Assembly (NCBI GenBank): GCA_017857875.1
Contig: JAFMCH010000004.1
Location: 1-63,067 of the forward strand
DNA from: Actinomycetota bacterium
GTDB taxonomy: Bacteria; Actinomycetota; Actinomycetes; S36-B12
Reading direction: 5' to 3'
DNA length: 63,067 nucleotides
A program made the translations under genes and the position numbers. How positions within the stretch are numbered: the stretch's first letter is position 1; each line of letters begins with the position of its first letter. This document shows, piece by piece, positions 1,476 to 63,067 of this stretch. Under the pieces are notes generated by a model. The model was not told where the DNA came from and searched no databases. It saw only the letters and a program-made list of their open reading frames with translations.

Positions 1476-1512
1476 GGTCGCTCCGCGTCCTTTCACCGTG
1501 AGGTGTGCCGAC

Positions 1513-2139
1513 CTAGGAACCGACACTGCCAAGCCGACCGTACCAAAGGCAGGTCTCTCCGTACGTGCGTCGATCAATGCGGGTGAATCCCCATCCGTGG
1601 TGACTAGCTTCGGGGAAAGGTGACTGGGTGTCGCGGGACTCGCGCTCGACTACCACGAGGCTGCCATCGGCGCAGCAATCCCCATCACGCAGGTCACCAA
1701 GCAGCCCCTGCAGATCAGCCGCAGCTTGCTCATACGGTGGATCCGCAATTAAGAGGTTGATCGACCTGGGGTTCGCAGCGCATTCGCCCATTGCCGCCCA
1801 GCGATAGACATCTGCGATCTTGATGTGGGCCCCGGGCAACCCAACGACGTCAATATTGGCGCGCAGGGCCCCGACCGCAGCGCGATCTCGCTCCACAAAC
1901 GTCACCGATGCTGCGCCTCGACTCAGTGCCTCGAGGCCAAGTGCACCAGAGCCGGCGAAGAGATCGAGCACACGGATATCGGCCCACGGATCACGATCAG
2001 GGTCAACTCCAGCGGCGCTGAGGTAACTGGTGATGCTTGAAAACATGGCCTCGCGCACGCGATCAGTGGTCGGCCGGGTTGCTTTGCCACGGGGGGCTTG
2101 TAGCCGTCGGCCACGAGCCGCCCCAGAAACTATCCGCAT
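1513..2139 (-). CDS. rsmD: 16S rRNA m2G966 methyltransferase
   Basis: MRIVSGAARGRRL, TRPTTDRVREAMF, VLDLFAGSGALGLEALSRGA, DPPY. Confidence 0.95.
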   Translation of the reverse strand: MRIVSGAARGRRLQAPRGKATRPTTDRVREAMFSSITSYLSAAGVDPDRDPWADIRVLDLFAGSGALGLEALSRGAASVTFVERDRAAVGALRANIDVVGLPGAHIKIADVYRWAAMGECAANPRSINLLIADPPYEQAAADLQGLLGDLRDGDCCADGSLVVVERESRDTQSPFPEASHHGWGFTRIDRRTYGETCLWYGRLGSVGS

Positions 2140-2145
2140 GACACC

Positions 2146-4380
2146 TCAGCCCTTGTGCAAGTACTCAGCACGGTCATCTCGCTGAATCGACGCGGTCAGT
2201 TCTCGCAGGGCGAGATTTCGGCTCAAGTCGGGATCACGGGCAACAAGGGATTCCGCCGCGGCGCGTGCCCGTTGAATGACCGATTCGTCACGAACTACCT
2301 CCAGGAGTCGTAGTGACGTTCGGCCACCAGATTGCGCGGCACCGAGAACATCACCTTCGCGCCGGCTCTGCAGATCAATCCGAGCAAGTTCGAAACCATC
2401 GGTCGTGGACGCAACGGCGTCAAGCCGGGCACGTGCCGGGGACTGCGCATCGACAGATGTGACCAAAATACAAAGACTGGCCGCCGCACCGCGACCCACC
2501 CGGCCCCGCAATTGATGAAGTTGTGAGATGCCAAAGCGGTCAGCATCTAGCACGATCATGATCGTGGCGGATGGCACATCCACCCCCACCTCAATGACCG
2601 TCGTAGACACGAGAACATCGAGACTGTCGGCAGCACTAGATGCAGCCGCAAAGCGCCGCATGATCTGCTCCTTATCGTCGGCTGTCATGCGCCCGTGCAA
2701 AACGCCCACACGCAGGTCCGAAAGGATCGACGTACTCAATTCATGAGCAGTCGCGACAACACTGGCGGCCATTATTTTGTCGTCGGAGTCCGTATTCGCC
2801 AGCGCGTCGAGACTGTCTTCCTCATCGACGTCTTCGGCTCCGATACGGGCACACACCACATATGCCTTGCCACCAGCCTCGACCTCTTCGCGCACACGTT
2901 GCCATGCACGTGCCACATGTCGGGGCTGCTCGATCCGCGAAATCACGTGAGTGGCAATTGGTTGGCGGCCTTTGGGGAGTTCGTCAAGAACACTCACGCT
3001 GAGATCTCCAAAAACCGTCATTGCTACGGTGCGGGGAATGGGTGTCGCCGTCATCACGAGCATGTGCGGGCGGGTTCCATCAGGCAGTGCTCGGTGTAGC
3101 ACCGCTCGCTGCTCTACGCCAAAGCGGTGTTGCTCATCAATCACAACCAAACCCAGTTCGGCGAACTGCACCGACTCCTCAAATAACGCATGTGTGCCGA
3201 TCACAATTCCTGCTTCACCGCTGACTATTGCCAAGAGCCCTTCACGTCGCTGCTTTGCCGACATTGAACCGGTCATGAGCTGAACTCCTGTGGCATTGAC
3301 AGCACCCGACAACATGCCGCCCTCGGCCAATGGGCCTAGGAGCCCGCGTATCGTCGCCGCATGTTGCTGGGCCAGCACCTCCGTCGGCGCGATCAAGGCA
3401 GCTTGACCCCCCGCATCAACGACGGCGAGCATGGCACGCAACGCGACCAGGGTTTTTCCGCTACCCACATCCCCCTGTAGCAACCGATGCATCGGATGAT
3501 TAGCCGCCAAGTCAGCAAAGATCTCGCTCCCGACGCGTTGCTGAGCTGAGGTCAAGTCAAAAGGTGACGCTTCCTCGAACTCGGTCAGCAATCCCCCGGC
3601 GACCGCGGTTCGTGGAATGGCCGTAAGGCTGCGCCACTCGGCGCGCCGTTGGGCCAACACGACCTGCAACACGAACGCCTCGTCGAACTGAAGGCGTCGC
3701 CTCGCTGCCTCCACCTCCTGCATCGACGTGGGTCGATGAATCCAGGTGAGCGCCTGTTCCACCCCGATGAGACCTTCATCTTGTTGAATATCTGCGGGTA
3801 CCGGATCGTCCACCGCACCAAGTGACTCCAGCACGTGCGAAATCGCGTTACCAATACGCCAACTCGGAACTTTTGCCGTGGCCGCATAAATCGGCACCAT
3901 CCGCGCGGTAAAAAATCGTGCTGCTTCCACCTCGTCCGGATCAGCGACACTGCCCGGCAAGATCAGCAGCCGTGGATGAGTCAGCTGTTTTGTCGACCGA
4001 AATATCGACACGGTTCCTTCAAAAAGACCACGCCGACCAGGCTGACACTGCGATTCGCGCCACTTCTGGCCGAAAAAAACCAATGTGATGTAGCCGGTGC
4101 CGTCGGTGACCACCACCTCAACCCGTTGGCCCTTGCGTTGACGCATCGGCGTGGATCGCACCGACACCACTTCAGCGAAGATCGTCACGTGTTCGCCGGG
4201 AGTCAACGCCCCAAGATCGCTCATCTCCCCCGGTGTCAGGTACCGGCGCGGATAATGACCCAGTAGATCGCCGACTGTTCGCATACCAAAACCCTCAAGC
4301 AGAATCTTGGCCGTCTTGCCCCCGACAGCAGGACCAAGCGAATCGGTGAGCGACGTTGCGCCTAGTACAGCCTCACTCAC
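2146..4380 (-). CDS. recG: ATP-dependent DNA helicase RecG
   Basis: RLLQGDVGSGKT, DEQHRFGV, MTATPIPRT, QLHQLRGRVGRG, wedge domain. Confidence 0.97.
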   Translation of the reverse strand: MSEAVLGATSLTDSLGPAVGGKTAKILLEGFGMRTVGDLLGHYPRRYLTPGEMSDLGALTPGEHVTIFAEVVSVRSTPMRQRKGQRVEVVVTDGTGYITLVFFGQKWRESQCQPGRRGLFEGTVSIFRSTKQLTHPRLLILPGSVADPDEVEAARFFTARMVPIYAATAKVPSWRIGNAISHVLESLGAVDDPVPADIQQDEGLIGVEQALTWIHRPTSMQEVEAARRRLQFDEAFVLQVVLAQRRAEWRSLTAIPRTAVAGGLLTEFEEASPFDLTSAQQRVGSEIFADLAANHPMHRLLQGDVGSGKTLVALRAMLAVVDAGGQAALIAPTEVLAQQHAATIRGLLGPLAEGGMLSGAVNATGVQLMTGSMSAKQRREGLLAIVSGEAGIVIGTHALFEESVQFAELGLVVIDEQHRFGVEQRAVLHRALPDGTRPHMLVMTATPIPRTVAMTVFGDLSVSVLDELPKGRQPIATHVISRIEQPRHVARAWQRVREEVEAGGKAYVVCARIGAEDVDEEDSLDALANTDSDDKIMAASVVATAHELSTSILSDLRVGVLHGRMTADDKEQIMRRFAAASSAADSLDVLVSTTVIEVGVDVPSATIMIVLDADRFGISQLHQLRGRVGRGAAASLCILVTSVDAQSPARARLDAVASTTDGFELARIDLQSRREGDVLGAAQSGGRTSLRLLEVVRDESVIQRARAAAESLVARDPDLSRNLALRELTASIQRDDRAEYLHKG

Positions 4381-4383
4381 TAC

Positions 4384-6057
4384 TCACTCGACCCCAATGA
4401 TCAATGGCCACAACGGCTGACCTGCCTCAATGACAGTGATGTCGATCGCCGGATAACTGCCTAGTAATTGCTCGGTCACTGTGCGTAGGAGCCGGGGCGG
4501 TACATCCTCACCGGTGAGAAACGTGACAAGTTCACCACCGGTAGACAACAGTCGGTCCAAGACTCGGTTGACGACGACTCCCTCATCAGCGCCGATTTCA
4601 ACAATGTCTCCTTCGACCACGCCGAGAATATCCCCAACCTGGCAAAGGCCGGCGCTGGTCAACGCCTGCTTTGTGGCCACGGTGATTGCCCCGTAACGCG
4701 TGGCCCGTGCCGCATCAGCCATCGCCACGACAACGTCATCAAAGACCGCGCCGGGCTCGGCTACCGCGACCGCCGCCAGTGTTTGCACAATGCTGCGCGT
4801 GGGAATGACACTTGCCCGCACGCCGCTCATTCGTGCCTGTTCAGCAGCAATTTCGGCAACGGCGATGGTGTCGCCATCACTGGGTAGAACAATCACCTCG
4901 GAGGCATCGAGACGATAAATCGCATCCAAGACTTCGCCGGTGGAGGGCCTACGGCCCGGTTGGGCCATGATCGTGGCGACACCGTTCCCGCGCAGCACCT
5001 GATCAATGCCGGGGCCGTGAGCAACCGCGAGGATTCCGCGACCCAAACGAGCAGGCGGTGACTGCAGTTCAACAGCACTCAAGAACGTTATACGCAGCCG
5101 CCGAGGTCGCACCAGATCGATGACGCGTTCGACCGCATCACCGGGATCATCGACGTGCACATGGACACTCCATAGATCGGGCCCGCCAGTGACCACCAAG
5201 GAGTCCCCCAGTGAATCTAAGACTGCCCGCAATTGATCAACCGTGCTCGCATCGGTTTCGCACACGAACATGACCTCGAAGTCACCGGTCCCGTGTTCGA
5301 GTTGCTCTTCCCTGCCAGTTTCCGTGCCGATCGGCGTCGGCAGAACTCGGCTTTGCACTTCAGGACGGTTTCGGCGCACACCTGTCACGACATCAAGCAG
5401 CGCGTCGTAGACGACCACGAGGCCCTGCGCGCCTGCGTCAACGACGCCGGCCTGGCGCAGCACCGGCAACTGTTCGGTCGTGTGTCGAAGCGCTGCATGC
5501 ATCGCGGATGAAATACCCAACAGGTGACGCAACAGGTCACCTTGATCTGGTTCGACATGTTGACTATCGACACGGACGCCTAGCGCCGCCGCGTCAGCGG
5601 CCGCTCGGGCAACCGTCAAGATCGTGCCCTCAACCGGACGCGCCACAGCCTTGTAGGCACGATCGCTGGCAGATTTCAAAGCAAGCCGGACGATGTCGAT
5701 ATCCAGGGGACTCCCGGCTGGAACATGATCAAGCGTGGACACGATGCCACGCAGAATCTCGGCGAGGATGACACCGGAATTTCCTCGAGCACCCAGCGTG
5801 GCCGCCTTGGCAACTGCCGCACCCGCTTCACCGAGGGTGACCCCACTGGGTAGGTCATCGAGTGCCTCGTAGCAGGCCTCCATCGTCAAGAACATATTTG
5901 TCCCCGTATCGCCATCAGCGATCGGAAAGACGTTGAGCGAATCAATCGCGCTGCGCGACTCCTCCAACGCGGTCATCGAAGCGGCAAGCCATGCTCGCAG
6001 CGACGACGGGTCCAAGACCGCGGCAACCGCCACCTGCCTATCGACCAAATCGGCCAT
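4384..6057 (-). CDS. DAK2-domain fusion protein (YloV/FakA-like)
   Basis: LNVFPIADGDTGTNM, GARGNSGVILAEILRG, GVVDAGAQG; between rpmB and recG; GGAGG SD before ATG 6057. Confidence 0.92.
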   Translation of the reverse strand: MADLVDRQVAVAAVLDPSSLRAWLAASMTALEESRSAIDSLNVFPIADGDTGTNMFLTMEACYEALDDLPSGVTLGEAGAAVAKAATLGARGNSGVILAEILRGIVSTLDHVPAGSPLDIDIVRLALKSASDRAYKAVARPVEGTILTVARAAADAAALGVRVDSQHVEPDQGDLLRHLLGISSAMHAALRHTTEQLPVLRQAGVVDAGAQGLVVVYDALLDVVTGVRRNRPEVQSRVLPTPIGTETGREEQLEHGTGDFEVMFVCETDASTVDQLRAVLDSLGDSLVVTGGPDLWSVHVHVDDPGDAVERVIDLVRPRRLRITFLSAVELQSPPARLGRGILAVAHGPGIDQVLRGNGVATIMAQPGRRPSTGEVLDAIYRLDASEVIVLPSDGDTIAVAEIAAEQARMSGVRASVIPTRSIVQTLAAVAVAEPGAVFDDVVVAMADAARATRYGAITVATKQALTSAGLCQVGDILGVVEGDIVEIGADEGVVVNRVLDRLLSTGGELVTFLTGEDVPPRLLRTVTEQLLGSYPAIDITVIEAGQPLWPLIIGVE

Positions 6058-6258
6058 GTCCCCTCCTCCCGGCATCCGTTCCCGCAGCTTCCCAGCCCCC
6101 TCACCGTAGCGAGGTTCTAGGGATCAGGGGTACCCGCAGTTTGGAGTGACGCCACCCACTCGGTTATCCTTGGCTCCGGCTTAGGTCGATCGACTTGGTT
6201 CTTTGCCCTTATCCGTTCATCCCGCCGCACGTGCGGCACATTATTCGAGGAGTTCACC

Positions 6259-6447
6259 GTGGCGGCCAACTGTGATGTCTGCGGCAAGGGCCCAGGTTTC
6301 GGCAACAGCATCTCTCACTCGCATCGCCGTACTCCGCGCCGCTGGAACCCCAATATCCAAACCGTGCATGCCATGGTGGGTCGTACGCCCAAACGCCTCA
6401 ATGTCTGCACCTCGTGCATCAAGGCCGGCAAGGTCACTCGCGCCTAG
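6259..6447 (+). CDS. rpmB: 50S ribosomal protein L28 (Zn-binding form)
   Basis: [30 protein letters not shown]...[11 protein letters not shown]; GAGGAG SD. Confidence 0.97.
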
Positions 6448-7061
6448 GTCAGCCGCGGATCATCCGCTGTGGGATCCTGCCCTTGATCGAGTGCATCCCA
6501 CGCCTGCGCCGCGCTAGTCGGCTGACCATCACTGATTCGCGTGCCGCCAGCACGCTCATAGCGGCGCCCCAATGCCGCCCAGCGTCGACCGCGTACCACC
6601 ACCATGATTCCGGCGACCACCACCGCTAGGCCCGATACAGCGGCCAGCAGCCACCACAGATTGCTTTGGGCGCTGATGATCTCACCGTCGTCTACGGCAG
6701 CCCTGATGAGTGCGTCGCGGCTGAAGATAAACGTCAATCCGGCCACGCCGGCGGTAGCCCCGGCCATAACCGCAACGCCGCCAACGATCACCCGGCCCCA
6801 GGTTCGAGTCGCAATGATTCCGGCCACAGCAGCCAGGGCAACCCAACCAGCCGCACCGCCGAAGCCGATCAATTCCCGTCCGGTAAACGTCTCTTGGGTC
6901 GTCGGCGACGCCTCCCCGGCAAAGACAGGCACAGTCACGGTCACCCACGTCGCGCCATAGGCCACCACACTGCCCACGGCACCAACCAGCAGCACGACCA
7001 GAGCGAAGGCATATTCGCGTCGTGAATTCCTCACTTCAACATCACCTGGAACTGCCACCAC
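6444..7061 (-). CDS. Trp biosynthesis-associated membrane protein (TIGR02234-like)
   Basis: Four hydrophobic segments, C-terminal 'W.ALGRRYER...[12 protein letters not shown]'; directly after trpE; start approximate (GTG 7061 or 7034). Confidence 0.85.
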
Positions 7062-8623
7062 TAGTCCACCTCCCCCACGTTCGCCAACGTGTTGGCAAAT
7101 GCCACCGCACGCAGCACAGCAGCAGCCTTCGATTCGCATTCGGCGTATTCACTTTCAGGATGTGAATCAGCCACGATGCCTGCTCCAGCCTGGACGATTG
7201 CGGTAGTGCCCACCAAAACCGCGGTTCGAATAGCGATGGCCGTATCTAGATCACCGGCAAAGTCGAGGTAACCCACGCATCCGCCGTATACGCCACGTTG
7301 GGCGGGTTCAAGTTCGTCGATGATGGCCATTGCGCTCGGTTTTGGTGCTCCCGACAACGTCCCGGCGGGAAAAGTTGCACGCAGGGCGTCGAACGCGGTG
7401 CGATCAGCAGCAAGATCGCCGATAACCGTGGACACCAGATGCATGACGTGCGAATACCGCTCAACCTGCATGAACTGCACGACTTCGACGCTGCCGGGCT
7501 CACACACACGACCTAGGTCATTGCGAGCCAAGTCAACGAGCATCAGATGCTCGGCCCGCTCCTTCTTGTCAGCTAGTAGATGCTCGGCCAACTCTTCGTC
7601 GCGTTCGGGACTCACACCCCGAGGTCGCGTGCCGGCGATCGGATGCACTCGACACTGCCCATCCGCGACCGTCACCAGCGCCTCGGGCGATGAGCCGACA
7701 ATGTCAAAACTCACAGTTGGGTTAAGCGGATCAGAGAACGGATCGGGCATCCGCAATAGGTACATGTAAGGACTGGGGTTTGTCGCGCGAAGTATTCGAT
7801 ACACATCAAGGGCGGATGCCGTGCAATCCACCTCAAATCTTTGCGACACAACGATTTGAAAGGCATCGCCGGCGCGAATGTGAGCTTTCGCCGCTGCTAC
7901 AGATGCCAGGTACTCAGCACGCGAGGTGCGGTGAGAGGGCATCGGCTCGGCACGGCTGTCATACACCGATACGGTCGAAGCGGCAGGTGCCTGCAAGTCG
8001 CGTTCCATGCCATCCAAACGAGCAAGGGCATCGTCATAGGCCATATCAACGCGCTCATCACTCGCGTCATAGTTAATGGCATTGGCGATCAGCAGCACGG
8101 TGCCATCGGTATGGTCCAAGACGGCTAGATCGCAGGCCAATAGAAAACCCATTTCGGGGACATCGTGCTCCTGGGGATTCGAATCGGGCACATATTCCCA
8201 GCGCCGAACGGCGTCGTATCCGATGAAGCCGACCATGCCGCCCGTGAGCGGGGGCAAGCCTGGCAATCGCGGGGTATGCAAGAGCGTGAGAACCTCGCGT
8301 AAGGCCGCGAGCGGGTCGCCCCCCGCATCAACACCAACCGGTGCGTTTCCCCACCAGTGTGCGACACCGTCAACCTCGCTCAGCATCGCTGCGCTGCGAA
8401 CGCCGACGAAACTGAAACGGCTAAATGATCGTCCTTGCTCAGCCGACTCAAACAGGAAACTACCTGCTCGTTCATGGCTCAGCTTGCGATACAGCCCGAT
8501 CGGTGTTTCGCCGTCTGCTAGCAGCCGGCGCGTTACCGGAATCACCCGCCGGCTGTCGGCTAGGTCGCGAAACTGCTCCAGGCTCGGGGCGTTGACGCCC
8601 GGTGTCGTCGGGCTTGTCGTCAT
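7061..8623 (-). CDS. trpE: Anthranilate synthase component I
   Basis: [55 protein letters not shown]. Confidence 0.97.
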
Positions 8624-9006
8624 GCCGGGTTACTCCTACCCGCAGCGCTTGCGTCCGACATACCCGCTGGCACGCGGCCTTCGAAACAAGAAACGCTCCC
8701 TGTGTGGCAGGCCGGACCCAGCTGGTCAACACTCAACAGCAACACGTCACCGTCGCAGTCGATACTGATCTCCCGGACCTGCTGCGCGTGCCCAGACGTC
8801 GCTCCCTTGACCCAATACTCTTGGCGACTGCGTGACCAATAGGTGGCTTGACCCGTGCGTTGCGTGCGCCGCAATGCCTCTGCATCCATCCAAGCCATCA
8901 TGAGTACCCGACCGGTTGCTGCGTCTTGAGCTATCACCGGAATCAAGCCGTCTGCTCCAAAAACTGGCTCGATCATCTCCATGGGTTCAGGTTCAGAGCT
9001 GCTCAT
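8620..9006 (-). CDS. hisI: Phosphoribosyl-AMP cyclohydrolase
   Basis: [35 protein letters not shown]; ATGA overlap with hisF stop. Confidence 0.95.
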
Positions 9007-9815
9007 GAACCCATTGTGGCTGGCTCGCGAACCCAATCGACATCGACCCGCACAGGGTATCCGGCCGCTCGCAGGTGTTCCTTCATTTGCGCAATGGTGA
9101 CCTGGCCGAAGTGGAAAATACTCGCGGCCAATACAGCATCGGCACCGGCCGCGACAGCGGGTGGGCCGTGCTCGGCCGCGCCTGCGCCACCGCTGGCAAT
9201 GACCGGCACGTTGACCGCTGCGCGGACTAGCTCAATGAGTTCCACATCAAAGCCGGCTTGTGTGCCATCAGCATCCATCGAGTTGAGCAGGATTTCCCCG
9301 GCACCTGCTTGAGCCCCCGAAACCGACCAGGCAACAGCGTCAATTCCCGTGCCGCGGCGTCCACCGTGGGTAGTGACCTCGAAGCCGCTTGGCGTTGCGT
9401 GTGGATCCTCGCATCGGCGTGCATCCACACTGAGCACGACACACTGCGAACCAAATCGGTCGGCGGCCTCGTTGATCAATTCAGGTCGAGCAATGGCGGC
9501 CGTATTGAGACTCACCTTGTCCGCCCCGGCCCGAAGCAGTCGGTCGAAGTCATCAACACTGCGCACTCCGCCGCCCACCGTCAACGGAATGAAGACCTGC
9601 TCGGCGGTGCGACGAACGACGTCGTACATGGTGGACCGATCAGCACTCGAAGCCGTAATGTCCAAGAAGACGAGTTCATCGACACCTTGAGCGTCATAGC
9701 GTCGCGCCAATTCCACCGGATCCCCCGCATCACGCAAGCCCGTGAAGTTGACACCTTTCACGACCCGCCCGGCATCGACATCCAGACACGCGATGACCCG
9801 TACGGCAAGGCTCAC
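9003..9815 (-). CDS. hisF: Imidazole glycerol phosphate synthase cyclase subunit
   Basis: [50 protein letters not shown]. Confidence 0.97.
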
Positions 9816-10597
9816 GGTTGCGGTGGACCCCAGAAATACAGGTCAAAGCGAGGTTCAATCGCGGCAACTGCTTCGGCCAACGTGAACGCGTTTTCATAAA
9901 GTGCCCGACCGATAATGGCACCTTCGATGCCGTGCGGAACGAGTTCGGCCAACCGATGCAAGTCTTCTAGCCGAGCGATGCCGCCTGAGGCAATGACGGG
10001 GCGATCAGTGTGCGCGCAGACTTTCTTCAGCAGGTGCAGATTGGGACCGTGCATCATGCCGTCCTTTTCCACATCTGTGACGATGTAACGCGCGCAACCA
10101 TCAGCGTCAAGCCGTGAGAGTGTCTCGAACAGGTCTCCACCTTCACTGGTCCACCCACGCGCTGCCAGCGTGTGTCCGCGAACGTCCAGCGAAACGGCAA
10201 TGCGATCTGCATGCTCGGCGATCACCGACCGCACCCACTCGGGGTTTTCCATGGCTGCCGTGCCAAGCACCACTCGGGTCGCGCCGGTGTTCAATGCCGC
10301 CCGCAATGAGTCGTCATCACGGATACCGCCGGCCACCTCAACATGAACGTCACCGCGAATTGCATGCACAACTTTGGTGAGGAGCTCATGATTGGATCCT
10401 CGTCCAAAGGCCGCATCCAGATCGACCAGGTGCACCCACGGCGCCCCCTGCTCGACCCAACCGCGAGCCGCCTGCACGGGGTCGCCGAAGTCAGTCTGCG
10501 AACCGGCCTCACCCTGAACGAGGCGAACAGCTCGTCCGTCTTGGATATCAACTGCGGGCAAGAGCGTGAATGCGGGCTTTTGCGGAGAAGGCGCCAT
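9812..10597 (-). CDS. priA: Bifunctional HisA/TrpF phosphoribosyl isomerase PriA
   Basis: [33 protein letters not shown] loop ([12 protein letters not shown]) typical of actinobacterial PriA; no trpF nearby. Confidence 0.93.
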
Positions 10598-10658
10598 GCC
10601 ATCACCCTACCGAGGAGGTCTTCTGAGGCATTGTCAAGGACTCACCTGGGGAATCGGC

Positions 10659-10988
10659 CTAGACCCGGCCGAAGGACATCACCCACACCACCGGCGCACA
10701 CAACAGACAGAACACCAGCAAAATCAGGCGGGCACCCCAACTTGGCATCAGCGGCCAGGCGATGAGACAGATCACCGCGATTCCACCGGCCATCACAGCT
10801 AACCGTCGCCTGCGACGTTGGGCGAGGAGCCCGGGAGTCGTCTTCGGCATCGACGGAACAAGCCGACGCAATGAACGCCCCCAAGCCTGGCGGCGGTCTA
10901 CCCGGGCGCGCCGCCGCGCACGTCTATTTCGTTCCTTGGCGGCCTCGCTCTCACGCAACTCCCGGCGCCGGGCCCGCTCTTTGCTCAC
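10659..10988 (-). CDS. Hypothetical Arg-rich protein with C-terminal two-helix membrane anchor
   Basis: From GTG 10988: VSKERARRRE...RRRRRLAVMAGGIAVICLIAWPLMPSWGARLILLVFCLLCAPVVWVMSFGRV; fills hisH-priA gap. Confidence 0.7.
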   Translation of the reverse strand: MSKERARRRELRESEAAKERNRRARRRARVDRRQAWGRSLRRLVPSMPKTTPGLLAQRRRRRLAVMAGGIAVICLIAWPLMPSWGARLILLVFCLLCAPVVWVMSFGRV

Positions 10989-11010
10989 CGAGTCAGTCCC
11001 GGGTGCTGGC

Positions 11011-11643
11011 TCATAATGTGCCAATCCAGTTGGCCAGGAGCACCGCACCTGCCTGCGCGGACTTTTCCGGATGAAACTGAGTGGCCCACAGCGGGCCGTT
11101 TTCGACCGCCGACACAAACGGTGCTTCGTAGGTGGTCCATGTCACAGCCGGCTGCGGTCCATAGGGATTGGGCGGTAGCACCCAATCCAAAGCGGCGTAG
11201 GAATGCACGAAGTAGAAGCGCGCGTCATGGACTCCGGCAAACATCAGCGAAGATTCCGGTGCGGACACCGTATTCCATCCCATATGCGGCACGACCCGTG
11301 CCGGCAGACGCTGCACGGTGCCGGGCCATTGGCCAAGACCCTCGGTCGTGACCTCATGTTCAACGCCCCATTCAAACAGCACCTGCATCCCCACGCAGAT
11401 TCCGAGAACTGGACGGTCTCCGGTCAACCGCTGATCAATAATCTGTGGCGCCTGAACCCCCCTGAGCCCTTCCATGCACGCGGCAAATGCGCCTACTCCA
11501 GGAACAACAAGGCCATCCGCGTTGAGCGCTGCTTGGCGATCATGCGATACCTCAACGGTGGCGCCGGCACGTTCAATGGCTCGGCTGGCTGAACGCACAT
11601 TGCCCGAGCCATAGTCCAAAACGACGACTCGCGGTTTGGTCAC
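11011..11643 (-). CDS. hisH: Imidazole glycerol phosphate synthase amidotransferase subunit
   Basis: [37 protein letters not shown]; start at 11643 (GTGA overlap) or 11655. Confidence 0.96.
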
Positions 11644-11801
11644 GCGGGGTTCCACGCATACAAAGCTCCGGCAATCAAGGACATCGCTGATAGCACGATA
11701 AAAATGATCATCGTCGTGCGTTTGCCCTGAGAGTAGAAGGAATAGGCACCACCCCCGAGGAAAGCGCCCAGACCCAACAACAGAATGGGTAGCCAGTTCA
11801 C
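11640..11801 (-). CDS. Small two-helix membrane protein of the hisB-hisH interval
   Basis: [53 protein letters not shown] (53 aa); resembles the small protein I recall at this position in Streptomyces-type his operons. Confidence 0.75.
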
Positions 11802-11814
11802 CGCTAAGGCCTCA

Positions 11815-12423
11815 CTACTCGACCGACTCACGCGATGACAACGTTCCCTTTGTGGAGGGAACACCGTGCACGCGAGGGTCAAGCGCCACTGCGTCGCGAA
11901 GGGCTCGGGCAAAGGACTTGAACTGCGCTTCTACGACGTGGTGGGCATTGCGTCCACTAATCACCCGAATGTGCAACGTGATTTGAGCCGTGGCAACAAA
12001 GGATTCGAAAATGTGTCGGGTCAAGGTGGTGTCGTAACTTCCGATCAATTCGACAATCTCGGGTTCCTCGTGCACCAGGTAGGGCCGTCCCGACAAGTCG
12101 ACAGCGCACTGGGACAAGGTTTCATCCAGCGGCACCAGGGCATCTCCGTACCGGCGTGTGCCCGCAGCATCGCCGAGGGCTTCTCGAAAAGCGGCGCCCA
12201 CGGCCAAGGACGTGTCTTCGACGGTGTGATGGGCATCTACTTCGAGGTCTCCAACGGTGCTAATACTCAAATCGAATCCACCGTGCTTGCCGAGTTGGGC
12301 CAACATGTGATCGAAAAAGGGCACACCGGTCGACACCTCGCACTGCCCCGTGCCATCCAGGTCAATCGACACGTTGACGCTGCTTTCCTTTGTCGCTCGT
12401 TCGACCCGACCCACTCGACTCAT
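11815..12423 (-). CDS. hisB: Imidazoleglycerol-phosphate dehydratase
   Basis: TGVPFFDHML, DAHHTVED, NAHHVVEAQFK, VPSTKGTL. Confidence 0.97.
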   Translation of the reverse strand: MSRVGRVERATKESSVNVSIDLDGTGQCEVSTGVPFFDHMLAQLGKHGGFDLSISTVGDLEVDAHHTVEDTSLAVGAAFREALGDAAGTRRYGDALVPLDETLSQCAVDLSGRPYLVHEEPEIVELIGSYDTTLTRHIFESFVATAQITLHIRVISGRNAHHVVEAQFKSFARALRDAVALDPRVHGVPSTKGTLSSRESVE

Positions 12424-12470
12424 GTCTGCGTCCTCACCTTCACGGTTTCATTCACCTGTCGCTACATGCC

Positions 12471-13610
12471 TCAGGTTGGCGTAGTGCCGTGGGAAATCAT
12501 GCCCGATGCTCCCCTTGCCAGAAGCAGGGCCTCGCGGAAGATCTCGTTCTGCGCAGCCGTGCCAATGCTGACACGCAACCATCCGGGCGGACCGCTCTCG
12601 CGGATAAGCACGCCGTGATCAAGCAATGCCTGCCACACAGCATGGGAATCGTCGAAGCATCCGAAGAGGATGAAGTTGGCATCGGAGTCCAACGCGGTAA
12701 ATCCGTTGTCACGCAGCCACACCAACAGTGCATCACGTTCCGTTCTCAGATCGCTGACCCGTCCGAGAAGTTCGTCGCTGTGTTCGAGGGCCACCTGCGC
12801 TATCACCTGGCTCAACTGCGAGAGGTGGTAGGGCAAGCGGACTAACTGCAATGCCTCAATCACCCGCGGATGTCCAACTGCGTATCCCAGACGTCCGCCG
12901 GCGAAGGCAAACGCCTTACTCATCGTGCGAGTCACAATCAGGTGCCGATACTTGGTGAGCAATGAAACTGCACTCGGCGTACCTTGACGACGGAACTCCG
13001 CGTACGCCTCGTCAACGACAACGATCGCGTCGGTCGCAGCGCATACTGTTTCGATAAATCGAAGTGGAACGGACGTGCCCGTCGGGTTATTGGGCGAGGT
13101 CAACACCACCAGCGACGGACGCTGATTGCCGATCGCCGAAGCGGCCTGATCAGCATCTAGCGAGAAGTTCGCTTGTCGCGCCACCTCGATGAATCCGGTG
13201 TGCGAATCCCTCGCATATTGCCCATACATGGAGTACGTAGGCGTGAATGTCAACGCGGTTCGACCTGGACCCCCGAAGGCGCTGAAGATTTGCGCCATGA
13301 CCTCGTTCGAGCCGTTGGCTGCCCACACATTGTCGGCCGATACTGCGGTATGAGACTCCCGCGTCACATAGGCCGCGAGTGCCTGTCGTAATTCCCGCGC
13401 ATCTCGATCGGGATAGCGATGAAGACTCAGCGCAGCGCTAGCTACTGCAGCCCCCATCGCCTGAGCAAGTTCCGGGGACGGCCCATAGGGATTCTCATTT
13501 GTATTGAGTCGGACCGGTACGTCGATTTGCGGTGCCCCATAGGGCGTTTCATGCAGCAGGTCATCGCGTACCGGCGGCCATTGCTCCGCCGATGCCTCAG
13601 GTATCGGCAC
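12471..13610 (-). CDS. hisC: Histidinol-phosphate aminotransferase
   Basis: [50 protein letters not shown]; start at GTG 13610 (track ORF over-extended into hisD). Confidence 0.95.
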
Positions 13611-56574: not shown

Positions 56575-57600
56575 ATGACCGGCTCCCTGAACAACATCTT
56601 GTTCGACGACGGCCGCAAGACAACACCGCTCAATGATGTCTGCGACCAGCTTTTCCTGGTGACCAAAGACAGCGGAAATGATCGTTTCGTCCGTTACGCA
56701 GTGCTGCTTGCACTATCAGCCGTGATCGCCACCGGCGGCATCATTGTCGATTCAACAGCCACGGTGATCGGCGCGATGATCGTGGCCCCCTTAGCGACGC
56801 CCATCCTGGCTGTGGGCCTGGCCATCACCACCGTTCGACCACGACAGGTGATCACTTCAGGAATTATTCTCGCGATCTCGGTCGCCTTCGTGGTCTTTAT
56901 CGGCATCGCACTCAACATCATCCTGCCCGCGACGGTCAACCTCGAGCAGAACTCGCAGGTGCTCTCGCGGATCTCGCCAAATCTGGTTGACCTCCTGATT
57001 GCGATCGCGACCGGGCTGGTGGGTGGCTTTGCCATCACGCGCAGCGATCTAGCCGGAGTTTTGCCTGGAGTGGCGATCGCCATCAGTCTGGTGCCACCGC
57101 TTTCCGTCGTCGGAGTCGTACTGAGCGAAGGTGGCTTTCAGCAGGCCTGGGGGGCAATGCTGCTGTTCTTGTCCAACGCCGTTGCGATGATCGGTGCCGG
57201 CGCTTTGGTTTTCACCATCGCCGGCTACAACGCGGCTGCGCGTCACTCACGCCGGATGGTCCGCCAGCCCATCCTGGTCGTCTCGGTCCTGAGCATCCTT
57301 TTGGTGGCTGTGCTTGCGGTTACGAGTCTGCAGAGCCTCGCCCAGGGCGTGTCGGTCACCAGGATCGAAAGCGCGACGAGCACCTGGCTAGCCGGCAGCA
57401 AGTACTCCCTGACCAGCGTCACCGCAGTTCCAGGCGGATTCATCATCACGATAATCGGCACAGGTGACGTACCTGATACGCGGCTGTTCTATGACAATTT
57501 CTTACCCGTACTGTGGTTCGACCCGGACATTCAGGTACGCCAACTCAGCGGCAGCGTCGAGCCTTTGCCCGAGCCGGGGCCAACACCAACGCCGAGTTAG
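56575..57600 (+). CDS. DUF389 family membrane protein
   Basis: LSAVIATGGII.DSTATVIGAMIVAPL, DLLIAIATG, LPGVAIAISLVPPL; start approximate. Confidence 0.9.
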   Translation: MTGSLNNILFDDGRKTTPLNDVCDQLFLVTKDSGNDRFVRYAVLLALSAVIATGGIIVDSTATVIGAMIVAPLATPILAVGLAITTVRPRQVITSGIILAISVAFVVFIGIALNIILPATVNLEQNSQVLSRISPNLVDLLIAIATGLVGGFAITRSDLAGVLPGVAIAISLVPPLSVVGVVLSEGGFQQAWGAMLLFLSNAVAMIGAGALVFTIAGYNAAARHSRRMVRQPILVVSVLSILLVAVLAVTSLQSLAQGVSVTRIESATSTWLAGSKYSLTSVTAVPGGFIITIIGTGDVPDTRLFYDNFLPVLWFDPDIQVRQLSGSVEPLPEPGPTPTPS

Positions 57601-58793
57601 ACCCGGCCCTTAAGCATGAAGTCCCAATACAGGCGCGGCAAACCCACCTTTTTGAACCGGTTGTAGTCGACGATTTCTTTGGTCTGATCCACACCCTTAA
57701 GCGATGGCCGCAGGTTCAGGTCGTAGTCGAACTCACACAGGAGAAGTTTCTTGCGACTGGTCGTGATCGGGCACGACGCGTAGCCGTCATAGTGACCCGA
57801 GCCGACTCCTCCCTTCAGAGTCGCCATCAGATTTTCCACGACCACAGGCGCCTGCTTGCGAATCGCCGCACCCGTCTTGGAGTTAGGCGTGTTCGTGCAG
57901 TCACCGAGCCCGAAAACCTCCGGGTACTTCGTGCTCTGCAGCGTGAACTTATCGACAGCCATGTAGCCGAAGGGGCTGTCAGCATCAACCAGCGGTGTGG
58001 CGGCGAGCCAATCTGGGGCGCTCTGGGGTGGCACCATGTGGGCGAAGTTGTAGGGCAATGTCTGAGTCTCGCCGGTTTCGTTGTTCTTAATCTCCATGGT
58101 GTGCGCTGCTGCATCTACGCTGGTGACCACCGTGTTGAGATGCACCTCAAAGCCGTAGCGCGCAGCAACGTCGACCAGCACGTCAGACCACACCTTCACG
58201 CCGAACATTCCTGGAGTCGGCAAGATCATGATCTTGCGAATGTTGTCCAGCACACCCTGCTCTCGCCAGTAATCAGCGGCGAGATACGCAATTTTCTGGG
58301 GTGCTCCAGCGCACTTGATGGGCCCAGCTGGCATGTGAAAGATAGCCGTGCCCGAGCGCGTGCGTTGCACGTTCTCCCAGGTCTTGGGGGCAAGGTAGTA
58401 GTCGTAATTTGACGACATGCCGTCATGCCCCATGGCATCAGCCAGCCCGGGAATTCCATCCCAGTTCAATTGAATACCGGCGGCGACGACGAGGCGATCG
58501 TAGGTAATGGTGTCGCCCGAGGCCAGGGCGATGGAGCATGATTCGGGGCTAATGCCCGTGACCGAGTCATGAATCCAATGCACGCCCCGCGGGATCACCC
58601 ATGACATCGGCCGCACACTTTGGGCATCGCGGGCTCTCCCACCACCCACCAGGGTCCATAGGGGTTGGTAGTAGTGCACGTCAGAGGGATCGATGACGGC
58701 CACATCGCTGGCACCAGCACGCTTGAGCCGTGCAGCAACGGTGATTCCGGCCGAACCACCGCCGATGATGACGATTTGATGATGAGTCGACAT
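57597..58793 (-). CDS. sqr: Sulfide:quinone oxidoreductase (type II-like)
   Basis: IIGGGSAG, HYYQPLWTLVGGG, KCAGAPQK and YASCP redox cysteines, FGLGD, KTGAAIRKQAP; GGAGG SD before ATG 58793. Confidence 0.9.
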   Translation of the reverse strand: MSTHHQIVIIGGGSAGITVAARLKRAGASDVAVIDPSDVHYYQPLWTLVGGGRARDAQSVRPMSWVIPRGVHWIHDSVTGISPESCSIALASGDTITYDRLVVAAGIQLNWDGIPGLADAMGHDGMSSNYDYYLAPKTWENVQRTRSGTAIFHMPAGPIKCAGAPQKIAYLAADYWREQGVLDNIRKIMILPTPGMFGVKVWSDVLVDVAARYGFEVHLNTVVTSVDAAAHTMEIKNNETGETQTLPYNFAHMVPPQSAPDWLAATPLVDADSPFGYMAVDKFTLQSTKYPEVFGLGDCTNTPNSKTGAAIRKQAPVVVENLMATLKGGVGSGHYDGYASCPITTSRKKLLLCEFDYDLNLRPSLKGVDQTKEIVDYNRFKKVGLPRLYWDFMLKGRV

Positions 58794-58863
58794 GAAGACC
58801 TCCCACGTGAGCGGATAACGACAACGAGACGATGAAAGCGAGATAAGTCTAAACCTAATTCGC

Positions 58864-58879
58864 ATACGCCCGGGGGTAT
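58864..58879. promoter_or_regulatory. CsoR/CstR/RcnR-type operator
   Basis: ATAC-GCCCGGGG-GTAT (minus strand ATACCCCCGGGCGTAT); upstream of a TAGGTT -10-like hexamer for sqr. Confidence 0.7.
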
Positions 58880-58933
58880 TCAGGCAAAGCCGAATGCCCC
58901 CGCCCAGAACTCAGGCGGGTACATACTTTGCCC

Positions 58934-59995
58934 ATGTTGCGTATGCCCGCCGAATGGGAACCTCACGAGCGCACCTGGATGGCGTGGCCCAGTGAGGGCT
59001 ACACCATGGGGGCGTCTGGCAGCCAGATGCAGGCAACCCAGATGCAGGCAACCCAGATGCAGGCAACACTGTCGGCTTGGGCATCTGTGGCCCATGGTGT
59101 CGCACAGTACGAGCCGCTGACCATGGTCGTGGACCCCACGTCAGTCGATACGGCTCGTCAATGGTTGATCGGGGGCACGAAGTACCCGATTACTTTGATG
59201 GAGACTCCGCTCGATGACGCGTGGATGCGAGATATCGGGCCGACTTTTGTGATCGACACCGATCGCGCTCACGCCGATTCAGACACCCTCACGGCGGTTA
59301 ATTGGATCTTCAACGGTTGGGGACAACAGACCTGGGCAACATGGGGGAATGACGCGCACGTAGCGCACGCGATCATCTCGCAGTTGGGATGCCCGTCATT
59401 TGATTCACCATTGGTCAATGAAGGCGGGGGCATTCACGTTGATGGTCGGGGTACCGCGTTAGTGACAGAGACGGTTCAACGAGATCCCTATCGAAACCCG
59501 GGGTGGACGCGAGCCGACATCGAGGATCACCTGCGTGAAGCGATCGGGGTCAACCGCGTGATCTGGCTACCTAGGGGCCTAACCCGAGACTACGAAACTT
59601 TTGGCACGCGTGGCCACGTCGACATCGTGGCTTGCTTTACCCCAGTGGGCTCAGTTCTGGTGCACGACCAGCAAGATCCAGGTCACCCGGACTATGCGGT
59701 CTGCCAGGTGCTTCATCAATGTCTCAAGGACAGCGGTTTAGACATCGTCACCGTCCCCGCACCCACGATCACCACGGATGACGAAGGCTTCGTCGACTAC
59801 AGCTACATTAATCATTATGTGCTTAATGGCGCCGTCCTCCTGTGCGCCTTCGATGACCCAAATGATGAAGTGGCCCAACGGATTCTCGCTCAGGTCTACC
59901 CGGATCGACACATCGAACTCATTGACGCCCGGCGCATCTTCGCCCTCGGCGGTGGCATTCACTGCATCACCCAGCAGCAACCGCGACTGATCTGA
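58934..59995 (+). CDS. aguA: Agmatine deiminase (pentein/PPAD) family protein
   Basis: RMPAEWEPHERTWMAWP, DDAWMRDIGP, NEGGGI, GHVD, SYINHY, GGGIHCITQQQP (catalytic Cys); substrate not proven. Confidence 0.9.
   Translation: MLRMPAEWEPHERTWMAWPSEGYTMGASGSQMQATQMQATQMQATLSAWASVAHGVAQYEPLTMVVDPTSVDTARQWLIGGTKYPITLMETPLDDAWMRDIGPTFVIDTDRAHADSDTLTAVNWIFNGWGQQTWATWGNDAHVAHAIISQLGCPSFDSPLVNEGGGIHVDGRGTALVTETVQRDPYRNPGWTRADIEDHLREAIGVNRVIWLPRGLTRDYETFGTRGHVDIVACFTPVGSVLVHDQQDPGHPDYAVCQVLHQCLKDSGLDIVTVPAPTITTDDEGFVDYSYINHYVLNGAVLLCAFDDPNDEVAQRILAQVYPDRHIELIDARRIFALGGGIHCITQQQPRLI
59023..59067. repeat. 15-bp in-frame tandem repeat in aguA (QMQAT)
   Basis: ccagatgcaggcaac three times exactly. Confidence 0.93.
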
Positions 59996-60741
59996 TGGCG
60001 CTCACCCCCGGCGAAGCCGACCACCTGTTGCTCTTCACCCAGTCCCAGTTAGCTCTGAGTAGACGCGCACGCGGGCTTCGCCTTAACGTGCCCGAGGCAA
60101 CCGCGCTGATCGCCCATCAAATTTGCGAATGGGCGCGCGATGGCCTGAGCCTCGACGCTGCGCGCACTCAAGCACGCACCATTCTCGGAGTCAACGACGT
60201 TCTACCCGAAGTACCCGAGATCGTCACCGAGATTCGTGTCGAAGCTCGCTTCGACGACGGTACGCGCCTGGTTGTTGTGGCCCACCCGTTCGAACCGTCG
60301 CCAACAATGGACATCGACGAAGCATCGGCTCCCCCGGCGCATGACTACCTGACTTTGCACAACATGGCCGAGACGGACATCGGCGTGACCTCACATCAGC
60401 ATCTGGCAGAGGTCAATCCGCGGATTCGCCTTGATCGATCCCGAGCTTTCGGCATGCGTCTGGCGTTGCCCGCCGGAGACACGCAGTGGCTGCGATCGGG
60501 CACAAGCGTGACCGCGCCCATTACGCCGATTGGTGGCGATCGGATTGTTATCGGCAATACCGGCCTAGTGGACGGCCCCCTTGATGATTCCCACGTGCGC
60601 GAGCGCGCATTACGCAAACTGCGCCAGTGCGGTTACCTCGATGAATCACAGGGCGAACCGATCGGGGACCTGGCTGGGGCAAATCGCGCAGTGAGCAAAA
60701 TTATGGATGACCTGCGTAAATCAAGGCAGCGGCCGCAATGA
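59995..60741 (+). CDS. ureAB: Fused urease gamma/beta-like subunit
   Basis: Gamma: RRARGLRLNVPEA..LI, VEARFDDGTRLVVV; beta: SHQHLAEVNP..RLDR..AFGMRLALPAG. Confidence 0.88.
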   Translation: MALTPGEADHLLLFTQSQLALSRRARGLRLNVPEATALIAHQICEWARDGLSLDAARTQARTILGVNDVLPEVPEIVTEIRVEARFDDGTRLVVVAHPFEPSPTMDIDEASAPPAHDYLTLHNMAETDIGVTSHQHLAEVNPRIRLDRSRAFGMRLALPAGDTQWLRSGTSVTAPITPIGGDRIVIGNTGLVDGPLDDSHVRERALRKLRQCGYLDESQGEPIGDLAGANRAVSKIMDDLRKSRQRPQ

Positions 60742-62396
60742 GCAGTTACGGACCGCGAGCCGGCGATATCGTCACACTTGGTGGCACGGGCCTGCAGCTG
60801 CACATCGACGACCGTGTCGATGATCAATACGATGAGTTTCGCGTCGGTTTCGCCAAGACAGGTCGCGACGGAATAGGGCTCAAATCCGTTGCTACACAGG
60901 ATTCCTGTGATCTGTTGTTGTCGAACGCTATCGTGCTTGATCCGATTGACGGAGTTCGCGTTGCGAGCATCGGTTTTCGAGATGGGCGAATCTGCGGCAT
61001 CGGCAAAGCAGGGAATCCGGACACCACACACGGCGTCGACATAGTCGTCGGTTCCGGCACAGTCGTCATTGACGCTGATGGCCTCATTGCCACACCGGGC
61101 GGGATCGATACCCACGTTCACAGTCTTAGCCCGCGAGTGTTTAACTCACTGATCTCCAGCGGCATTACCACCGTGATCGCCCAGGAAACCGGCCCTGTGT
61201 GGGGAGTTGGGATCGGTTCTCGCGCGCTCTTGCATCAGGCCTATCGAGCCATGGATAACTTCCCGCTCAACATTGGGATCCTGGGGCGGGGTTCCACCTC
61301 GGCCGATGTGGTCACTCGCGAGGCAATCTTGGCGCATGTGTGCGGCTTCAAAGTGCATGAAGACACCGGCACAACTTTGCGAACACTGGACACCGCATTG
61401 CGAGCAGCGGATTTTGCCGATGTTCAAGTGGCCGTGCACACCGATAGCCTCAATGAGTCGCTCTCCGTGGCCGACACAATTGCAGTGCTCGACGGACGAG
61501 TCGTTCACGCGTATCACGTCGAAGGGTGTGGCGGCGGTCATACGCCAGACGTACTGCAACTTGCCGGGCACGACAACATCTTGGCCTCATCCACTAATCC
61601 GACGTTGCCCTACGGCATCAATGCGATCGACGAACACCTCGACATGATCATGCTCACACACGGGATGAACGCGCACCGTGAGTCAGATATCCGAATCGCT
61701 CAAGCGCGAGTGCGCGCAACCACGATGGCGGCCGAAAACCAACTGCACGATCGCGGTGTTATTCCTATTACCTCTTCAGATGCCCAAGGCATGGGACGCG
61801 CCGGTGAAACCTGGTGGCGTACCTTCGCTTTGGCATCGGTACTCCGCCCCGACCCCACGGATTCAACCCGCCGGGACAATGAGCGCATCCTTCGGTACCT
61901 GGCAAAGATCACTATCAACCCGGCACTCGCACACGGACTCAGTCACGAAATCGGCCGTATCAGCGAGGGCTATCTCGGCGATATTGTTTTGTGGCAGCCC
62001 GAGCGGTTCGCCGCCACACCTCAACTCATCTTGAAAAGTGGCTTCCCCACCTGGGGTCAGACCGGAGACCCCAATGCAAGTATCGACTCCGCCGAGCCGC
62101 TGATTACGGCCGAACAATTTGGTGCCTATGCTGCCGCGCCTAGCGACCTGTCGTTCCTGCTGAGCAATGCGGTCGCCATCGCGGAGGGGCCTCCCCCCAC
62201 ACATCGCCGTGCCCTGGCCGTGCGCGGATGTCGCTCCGTTCGCAACGCCGATATGATCCGGCACGGAGAATCTGGCCCCGTCGAGGTAGTCACCTCGTTA
62301 GGAAGCAACCCGCAGCCAGTCGTACGTTGGCGCGGTGAGGAGTTAACGATGCAACCGGTCGAACACACTCCCCTGTCACGCCTGCATTTTTGGTAG
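60738..62396 (+). CDS. ureC: Urease alpha-like Ni-amidohydrolase (divergent)
   Basis: GKAGNPD, GGIDTHVH, GFKVHED, VHTDSLNE, HVEGCGGGH, STNPTLP, SSDAQGMGRAGE, RYLAKITINPALAHG. Confidence 0.9.
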   Translation: MSSYGPRAGDIVTLGGTGLQLHIDDRVDDQYDEFRVGFAKTGRDGIGLKSVATQDSCDLLLSNAIVLDPIDGVRVASIGFRDGRICGIGKAGNPDTTHGVDIVVGSGTVVIDADGLIATPGGIDTHVHSLSPRVFNSLISSGITTVIAQETGPVWGVGIGSRALLHQAYRAMDNFPLNIGILGRGSTSADVVTREAILAHVCGFKVHEDTGTTLRTLDTALRAADFADVQVAVHTDSLNESLSVADTIAVLDGRVVHAYHVEGCGGGHTPDVLQLAGHDNILASSTNPTLPYGINAIDEHLDMIMLTHGMNAHRESDIRIAQARVRATTMAAENQLHDRGVIPITSSDAQGMGRAGETWWRTFALASVLRPDPTDSTRRDNERILRYLAKITINPALAHGLSHEIGRISEGYLGDIVLWQPERFAATPQLILKSGFPTWGQTGDPNASIDSAEPLITAEQFGAYAAAPSDLSFLLSNAVAIAEGPPPTHRRALAVRGCRSVRNADMIRHGESGPVEVVTSLGSNPQPVVRWRGEELTMQPVEHTPLSRLHFW

Positions 62397-62406
62397 GCAG
62401 AACTAC

Positions 62407-63067
62407 ATGTGGGAATGGTTAGACCCTGGCCTCAGCGTCGGTGGTCTCCTCGCCGGTGTCATGGTCGGGTTAACGGGCATGGGTGGCGCCGCTCTCGTCA
62501 CGCCCATGCTTGTGCTGTTCTTCAACGTTCCCGCAGCGGCCGCGGTGAGTTCAGATGTGGTGGCTTCCGCAGTGATGAAGCCCGTCGGTGCATTCGTGCA
62601 CATCCGGCATTCCACCGTGCACTGGGGCATTGTGGGCTGGCTATCGGCAGGTTCGATACCCGGCGTCTTGATCGGCACCCTGATTTTCGCCATCGTCTCT
62701 GACACAGAGGGAGTCGAGGACACCATCCGAGTGTGGATTGGTCTTGTGTTGATCCTGGCGCTCCTGGCCATGGTGGGACGAGCCTTCGTCTCGGCGCGCG
62801 CTACCCGGCTGCGTGGACCGGCACCCATGGAAGGCACCAATGCCGCGGTCAGGATCGCACCGACGATCATTTTGGGGTTCCTAGTCGGGCTCTTAGTCGG
62901 CACGACAAGTGTCGGATCCGGCTCGCTCATCGTCACCACCATGCTCCTGCTCTATCCGTTACTTCGCCCGAGCGTTCTCGTCGGCACTGATCTAACTCAA
63001 GCAGTGCCGATGCTGGTGGTGGGCGCAATCGCGCATGCGGGGATCGGTGGCGTGGACTGGGCGGTCA
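62407..63067 (+). CDS. TauE/SafE (TSUP) sulfite/sulfonate exporter family protein, 3' truncated by window
   Basis: Manual translation from ATG 62407: MWEWLDPGLSVGGLLAGVMVGLTGMGGAALVTPML...AVSSD...MKPVG; second repeat VGTTSVGSGS; no stop before window end. Confidence 0.88.
   Translation, partial: MWEWLDPGLSVGGLLAGVMVGLTGMGGAALVTPMLVLFFNVPAAAAVSSDVVASAVMKPVGAFVHIRHSTVHWGIVGWLSAGSIPGVLIGTLIFAIVSDTEGVEDTIRVWIGLVLILALLAMVGRAFVSARATRLRGPAPMEGTNAAVRIAPTIILGFLVGLLVGTTSVGSGSLIVTTMLLLYPLLRPSVLVGTDLTQAVPMLVVGAIAHAGIGGVDWAV

Follow-up and report, generated by a model that had tools for sequence, protein, structure and literature searches.

Textbooks present urease as an enzyme with one substrate, and urease genes serve as markers of urea use in lakes and soils. 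The canonical nickel enzyme combines UreABC with the accessory proteins UreDEFG, as in Klebsiella aerogenes (2KAU, 1FWJ) and Sporosarcina pasteurii (4UBP). The ureases of Helicobacter mustelae (UreA2B2, 3QGA) and Bacillus subtilis (UreABC) are active without accessory proteins; both have the canonical pocket sequence and hydrolyse urea. Streptomyces coelicolor carries, as SCO5525-SCO5526, a cluster of ure(AB)C genes only, with no accessory genes (PMC2492869, PMC3293853), and these were listed as urea-utilising genes, with SCO5527 as an aguA homologue (PMC3293853). Here we describe a related locus at the end of a 63,067-nucleotide stretch of actinobacterial DNA (the window). The window is one contig (JAFMCH010000004.1) of a genome of 2.27 Mb that is 96.8% complete, and the closest relatives are labelled Candidatus Nanopelagicales, an order of freshwater actinobacteria (hereafter the order). 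Our subject is the urease-alpha-like gene of this locus, ureC.

Our preferred reading is that the UreC protein is an N-carbamoyl-amine amidohydrolase, with N-carbamoylputrescine as substrate, rather than a plain urease, and we rate the chance of this as about even. The gene lies in a run of four plus-strand genes arranged head to tail:

58928..59995, plus strand: AguA-like gene of the agmatine deiminase family (PAD_porph, PF04371, E 8e-98), the first gene of the operon
59995..60741, plus strand: ureAB, a fused urease gamma/beta small subunit (PF00547 and PF00699)
60738..62396, plus strand: ureC, a urease-alpha-like catalytic subunit of 552 amino acids (PF00449 and PF01979)
62407..63067, plus strand: membrane protein of the TauE/SafE family (PF01925), continuing past the end of the window

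The TGA of the deiminase gene and the ATG of ureAB share one base. The junction of ureAB and ureC is an ATGA overlap at 60738-60741, and these two genes are translationally coupled.

The ureC reading frame (60738-62396, plus strand) was intact, and its product matched K. aerogenes UreC along its entire length (E 1e-129). The protein has the alpha fold of the canonical enzymes, at 38-40% identity, and gamma and beta domains are likewise present at the locus, fused in a single chain. UreC scored 603 bits against the NF009686 subfamily model (“urease subunit alpha”), above its cut-off of 354. Its score against the TIGR01792 equivalog was 522 bits, under the cut-off of 680, and the other urease equivalog models also gave scores far below their cut-offs. 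UreAB scored 221 bits against NF009671, under the cut-off of 243. The AlphaFold 2 model of UreC had a predicted template modelling (TM) score of 0.88, and its best Foldseek matches were ureases (TM 0.90-0.91), among them 3QGA, the iron urease of H. mustelae. UreC was not closer to the iron type, with 431 bits of similarity to the iron urease versus 437 to nickel ureases. Comparison with a relative whose ureC is 74% identical gave a nonsynonymous divergence (dN) of 0.18, a synonymous divergence (dS) of 1.9 and a dN/dS of ~0.09. We concluded that ureC is under strong purifying selection.

Residues are numbered here after K. aerogenes UreC by means of the alignment, a numbering that was verified against known residues. 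All six canonical metal ligands, as reported in an earlier note on this DNA, were confirmed in the alignment: H134, H136, K217 (carbamylated), H246, H272 and D360. The catalytic and flap-lock residues H219, D221, H320 and R336 were also retained, and were invariant across the clade of relatives described below; M364, of the urea-contacting and catalytic set, was retained in UreC as well. The substitutions comprised C319T, H321G, A276C and A363G, together with LSPR in place of ICPQ. The same note had listed VHSLSPR, AQGMGR and EGCGGG as replacements, and each was present at the place it gave. The largest change, which that note had missed, affected the canonical A167 loop (GTxATTCTPGxW), which was replaced by AQETGPVWGVGIGSRA and was four residues shorter. 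The motifs are listed below, where residue numbers without a substitution are counted along the protein itself:

61113-61136, plus strand: HVHSLSPR, metal-binding His pair H126/H128, then the clade-specific SPR (Q141R), from the alignment
61179-61226, plus strand: AQETGPVWGVGIGSRA, rebuilt active-site loop with G157Q, G158E, A163W and A167I, from the alignment
61344-61364, plus strand: GFKVHED, position of the carbamylated Lys (K205), urea-oxygen-binding His207 and Asp209, from the alignment
between these and the next motif: VAVHTD, with His H234
61515-61541, plus strand: HVEGCGGGH, ligand H260, and Cys264 (A276C) beside the Gly whose carbonyl binds urea
61644-61667, plus strand: MIMLTHGM, tip of the mobile flap, with Thr307 and Gly309 for Cys and His, and catalytic His308 retained
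61773-61799, plus strand: SSDAQGMGR, ligand D348 and G351, with the clade-wide S361A and A363G

In S. pasteurii urease (whose numbering is given first), urea is held by His222 (H219) and by the backbone carbonyls of Ala170 (A167), Ala366 (A363) and Gly280 (G277), that of Ala170 binding a urea nitrogen, and the flap is locked by Asp224-His323-Arg339 (PMC7433671). The fixed differences sat at or beside the three urea-holding carbonyls A167, G277 and A363. The side-chain machinery is therefore intact in UreC, while each of the three carbonyl donors has altered surroundings.

We compared 112 distinct relatives of the clade with 10 canonical ureases. The relatives came from Nanopelagicales genomes and from loci of Streptomyces, Kribbella, Nonomuraea, Sphaerimonospora, Actinocorallia and Thermoactinospora; the canonical set comprised the K. 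aerogenes enzyme, four representatives from the library and, from within the order, five ureases linked to UreG. FastTree separated the relatives from the canonical ureases with a split support of 1.0 and a branch of 0.77, and UreC grouped with Streptomyces, Kribbella and Nonomuraea. The urease-like proteins are thus a large, monophyletic actinobacterial clade apart from true ureases, which has been noted as a cluster since 2008 and is annotated everywhere as urease. One clade motif, [FY]H[VI]EGCGGG, was found in >583 species genomes, and UreC carried this and the other signature motifs (SSDAxGMGR, HxHxxxPR, QExGPxWGVG). The differences from canonical ureases that were fixed among the 112 relatives included Q141R, G157Q, G158E, a deletion of 171-173, A276C, S361A and A363G. 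The A276C cysteine (Cys264) occurred in 120/120 close homologues and in 98% of the 112 clade members; HVEGCGGGH and SSDAQGMGR were invariant in the 120 closest homologues, in which Cys was the commonest residue at 319.

The flap itself was less informative. The flap sequence MIMLTHGM, with Cys replaced by Thr and the second His by Gly, was verified at 61644-61667, and the earlier note had taken the remodelled flap as a sign of a more open pocket suited to an N-substituted urea. This part of the argument did not hold. At position 319, Val was the most frequent residue (56 of the 112 clade members), ahead of Cys (20), Ser (17) and Ala (16), and Thr occurred in only 3. The catalytic His of the flap never changed, nor did the Asp and Arg that lock it. 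Position 321 varied as well (G 60, D 36, A 10), next to an unvarying His320. In locus L051 of the order, a canonical urease linked to UreG has Ala at 319, and C319A, C319S, C319D and C319Y variants of K. aerogenes urease exist as solved structures. The variation at 319, the Ala in L051 and the solved variants therefore indicate that a change from Cys to Thr is a local peculiarity that says little. Staphylococcus xylosus urease is said to have Thr at this position, and C319A reportedly has substantial activity. Neither the flap Cys nor the second His was conserved in the clade; in most Streptomyces loci the flap tip reads IVSVHDL, versus IMLTHGM here. What the clade members have in common, as read from the alignment, is a rebuilt pocket wall combined with a flap tip that has lost its constraint. 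We also considered the flap motif as a marker of the type of partner gene, and rejected it because there was no clean correlation.

The genes that accompany a canonical urease were missing. The source genome had no second ureC and, above the respective cut-offs, neither UreG nor UreD (UreE and UreF had no search of their own), no UrtA, no arginase-family enzyme and no AguB. Because the genome lacks UreD and UreG, the metal of UreC would have to be loaded unaided. A survey of 151 species genomes of the order separated two kinds of ureC: a divergent type (523-625 bits, or split copies) in 51 genomes and a canonical type (857-915 bits) in 6. The genomes with UreG above cut-off were exactly the six with canonical ureC; among the 41 genomes with the divergent type only, UreG searches returned one partial match at a contig end and three weak matches to other GTPases. 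UrtA exceeded its cut-off in two genomes of the order, adjoining canonical ureC in both, and AguB exceeded its cut-off in 0/48 genomes. UreC departs from a canonical urease in three defining features, namely the curated score, the pocket sequence and the maturation genes.

The product of the upstream gene looks like a real agmatine deiminase. It scored 246 bits against TIGR03380, under the cut-off of 382, and was alignable at ~40% to plant and bacterial agmatine deiminases. When mapped on the Medicago and Arabidopsis enzymes, it retained the Cys/His/Asp triad, the guanidinium-binding Asp, both substrate-channel Trp residues, the water-bridging Asp and a Glu at the distal-amine position. Because the agmatine-binding residues are retained, its predicted product is an N-alkyl urea and not urea. 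Within the same gene (window 59024-59068), a 15-bp unit occurs three times in tandem, perfectly and in frame (CAGATGCAGGCAACC), and encodes QMQAT three times. Since the deiminase of close relatives has 340 amino acids versus 355 here, the repeat was apparently inserted recently, into a surface region.

We then mapped reference proteins by tblastn on 119 clade loci. A PAD_porph gene (PAD) or a gene for a YtcJ-like amidohydrolase (Amidohydro_3) was present in 101/119 and directly adjacent in 85/119, versus 0/5 canonical urease loci, and many clade loci also contained a PotABCD-like ATP-binding cassette importer. The clade's neighbours are therefore deiminase or amidohydrolase genes and Pot genes, not the urea transporter and accessory genes of canonical urease. 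Dozens of Streptomyces species had the order UreAB-UreC-PAD, which corresponds to SCO5525-5526-5527. The S. coelicolor genes belong to the same clade, share the three genes and the signature motifs with the present locus (Streptomyces loci were 52-55% identical), and differ in gene order, which is PAD-UreAB-UreC here. Streptomyces encodes, in addition, a canonical urease and its accessory genes; the source genome has none.

The most complete neighbourhood was in Kribbella (L074, 5970-13659), where two PAD genes, with a Pot transporter between them, precede UreAB-UreC; three PAD paralogues in all flank the pair. A class-III aminotransferase gene begins 19 nt past ureC, followed by genes for alanine dehydrogenase and aldehyde dehydrogenase. 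Judged by their families, these downstream genes make up a putrescine transaminase route, which would take over right where the proposed step ends, and the whole looks like a complete cassette from agmatine to gamma-aminobutyric acid. The full arrangement occurred in one locus and a partial version in another. Across the 151 genomes, PAD and divergent ureC occurred together in 37, PAD alone in 14, the urease-like pair alone in 14 and neither in 86 (odds ratio 16, Fisher p 1e-12, no correction for phylogeny).

With these neighbours, the following pathway may be proposed. The substrate of the AguA-like enzyme would be agmatine or a closely similar guanidino-amine, its products would be N-carbamoylputrescine and ammonia, and the urease-like enzyme would act one step later. 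The ureido group would span the two metals as urea does in urease, with the alkyl-bearing nitrogen in the distal position, toward the channel under the flap; the distal position in urease points to this channel (PMC7433671). The bridging hydroxide would attack, the putrescine amine would depart, and the leftover carbamate would fall apart into CO2 and ammonia. The net effect would be to free two guanidino nitrogens as ammonia without AguB. A363G, the shortened A167 loop, A276C, Q141R, the Gly-Gly to Gln-Glu change and the unconstrained flap tip could then be adaptations to a substituted urea. An N-substituted urea as substrate was also the proposal of the earlier note, and it stands in outline, by way of the neighbourhood, the absence of helper, transport and AguB genes and the clade-wide pocket changes, but without its flap argument.

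Several observations weigh against an N-carbamoyl-amine amidohydrolase. The clade changes A163W and A167 to Val, Ile or Leu add bulk near the site and do not obviously open the pocket. The odds ratio given above is an uncorrected statistic. The 14 genomes with PAD and no urease-like gene (11 of them in one genus, g25) and the 14 with the pair and no PAD mean that the two are not obligate partners, and the PAD gene of one acI-like genome is solitary amid housekeeping genes. In many loci the partner is the YtcJ-like amidohydrolase, which is uncharacterised; sequence and fold searches reached only the uncharacterised structures 3ICJ and 3IGH, with deaminases and carboxypeptidases as remoter matches. 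Adjacency can stem from common nitrogen regulation instead of consecutive steps, and we found no biochemical study of any clade member in the searchable literature. In the one g25 locus that we examined (L142, 7396-10576), PAD stood between genes for an amino-acid permease and a TetR regulator, with no AguB nearby.

A plain urease is a serious rival, given that UreC retains every residue that handles urea and that ureases without helpers are known. Under this explanation UreC would be a genuine urea amidohydrolase whose metal centre (Fe, Mn, Zn or spontaneously bound Ni) forms without UreDEFG, and its guanidino-amine neighbours would reflect common nitrogen-scavenging regulation or a partner amidohydrolase that releases urea. 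The metal ligands together with H219, D221, H320, R336 and M364, the score above the “urease subunit alpha” cut-off of NF009686 and the TM of 0.9 to ureases, including the accessory-independent 3QGA, all fit. So do the precedents of H. mustelae UreA2B2 and B. subtilis UreABC, which function without UreDEFG, and of which the former shares the two-gene layout of the present locus. The YtcJ-like partner could in principle split a guanidino group into an amine and urea, and SCO5525-5526 are listed among the urea-utilising genes of Streptomyces (PMC3293853). However, a PAD-type deiminase with agmatine-binding residues cannot yield urea, the source genome has neither UrtA nor an arginase-family urea producer, and within the order UrtA and UreG accompany only the canonical urease. 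The surroundings of the three urea-binding carbonyls are changed throughout the clade, the score is under the curated urease cut-off, and UreC is no nearer to iron than to nickel ureases. We regard a true urease as plausible, though less likely than an N-carbamoyl-amine amidohydrolase.

An alternative that we consider improbable is that UreC acts on another ureido or amide compound, imported by Pot or made by the YtcJ-like enzyme, such as other N-carbamoyl polyamines, N-carbamoyl amino acids or products of diguanidino compounds; N-carbamoylputrescine would then be a minor substrate or one of several. PAD-linked and amidohydrolase-linked members were interleaved in the tree, and the flap tip is highly variable in the clade. 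Three different PAD paralogues surround the pair in Kribbella loci. Small acI-like genomes have the order Amidohydro_3-UreAB-UreC-C45 hydrolase-FAD oxidase-PotABCDD (FAD, flavin adenine dinucleotide), and six freshwater genomes have it without any PAD. Against such a substrate, the pocket signature residues are invariant in both kinds of context, which argues for one common substrate, and the sole partner whose specificity can be read indicates agmatine. One run of the acI-like kind (L034 of genome G007, 1352-12995) consists of ten genes: YtcJ-like, UreAB, UreC, a C45 N-terminal nucleophile hydrolase (AAT), the FAD oxidase (DAO), PotA, PotB, PotC and two PotD. Immediately upstream of it are genes for a B12-type diol dehydratase and the corresponding reactivase, and the pair of AAT and DAO follows ureC in seven further loci.

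A dead or decaying urease left behind by loss of accessory genes, to which the lack of UreD and UreG and the apparently truncated amidohydrolase and ureAB of a relative (L003/L064) might point, deserves almost no credence in view of the intact frame of 552 amino acids, the full catalytic set, the strong purifying selection, the presence of the clade in >583 species genomes and the tight translational coupling. In that relative (L003, 6626-8004, on a contig shared with L064), the calls for the amidohydrolase and ureAB were short (213 and 141 amino acids) and ureC was intact, which suggests frameshifts or decay of the partners.

Returning to an N-carbamoyl-amine amidohydrolase, we also asked how far this function might extend. 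The whole clade, which is common among freshwater Nanopelagicales and among Streptomyces, Kribbella and relatives in soil, could represent a self-assembling two-metal enzyme of this kind, possibly not dependent on nickel, that would provide a third, non-homologous route from N-carbamoylputrescine to putrescine after AguB and putrescine carbamoyltransferase. We hold this broader proposal tentatively, at slightly less than an even chance. The proposed reaction and place in the pathway are those of AguB, the N-carbamoylputrescine amidohydrolase (CPA; CN-hydrolase, TIGR03381), by analogy only: AguB is a nitrilase-type enzyme with a Cys-Glu-Lys triad, whereas UreC is a two-metal TIM-barrel amidohydrolase with neither the nitrilase fold nor the triad.

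If the proposal is true, thousands of proteins in this clade would be mislabelled as “urease subunit alpha”, and urease counts from soil and freshwater metagenomes would be in error as far as the clade is concerned. In the order, 51/151 genomes carry the divergent type versus 6 with true ureases and their helpers. If the divergent type is not active on urea, the ureolytic potential of these abundant freshwater actinobacteria is overestimated. A missing step in nitrogen scavenging from agmatine and polyamines would be filled, and the clade would offer an example of how a urease active site can be retuned and can receive its metal with no chaperones. Since the clade occurs in cultivable and genetically tractable Streptomyces, a direct test is feasible.

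A CN-hydrolase on contig C35 was considered as a hidden AguB and partner of PAD. We rejected this candidate, which scored 247 bits versus a cut-off of 410, lies beside an F420-dependent oxidoreductase of the luciferase-like monooxygenase (LLM) type and has orthologues that occur independently of PAD (in 19/48 genomes, with or without it). In this region (L006, 6819-10634), the nitrilase-family hydrolase stands between an open reading frame of 465 amino acids, which had no NCBIfam match at E 1e-15 or better, and the LLM oxidoreductase (TIGR03842).

The TauE-family gene starts 10 nt past the end of ureC and is probably co-transcribed with it. A gene of this family followed ureC only in L004, L005 and L022 among the 119 clade loci, and not in L023 or L062, where ureC is 74% identical. 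Because it is restricted to three close relatives, the TauE gene is outside the conserved module, and for the same reason we rejected it as a pointer to a sulfonated substrate.

A search for a riboswitch or other upstream RNA, which covered this region of the window and seven related loci, gave none. A weak Rfam match to 5_ureB_sRNA lay antisense within ureC (window 60865-61147, minus strand; 30.7 bits versus a gathering score of 40), and it most likely reflects similarity of the coding sequence to Helicobacter pylori ureB and not an RNA gene. Upstream of the operon lies one further gene that keeps its place beside the deiminase gene in the closest relatives:

57597-58865, minus strand: divergently transcribed flavoprotein resembling type III sulfide:quinone reductase (NF049943, 218 bits versus a cut-off of 525), syntenic with the deiminase gene in those relatives

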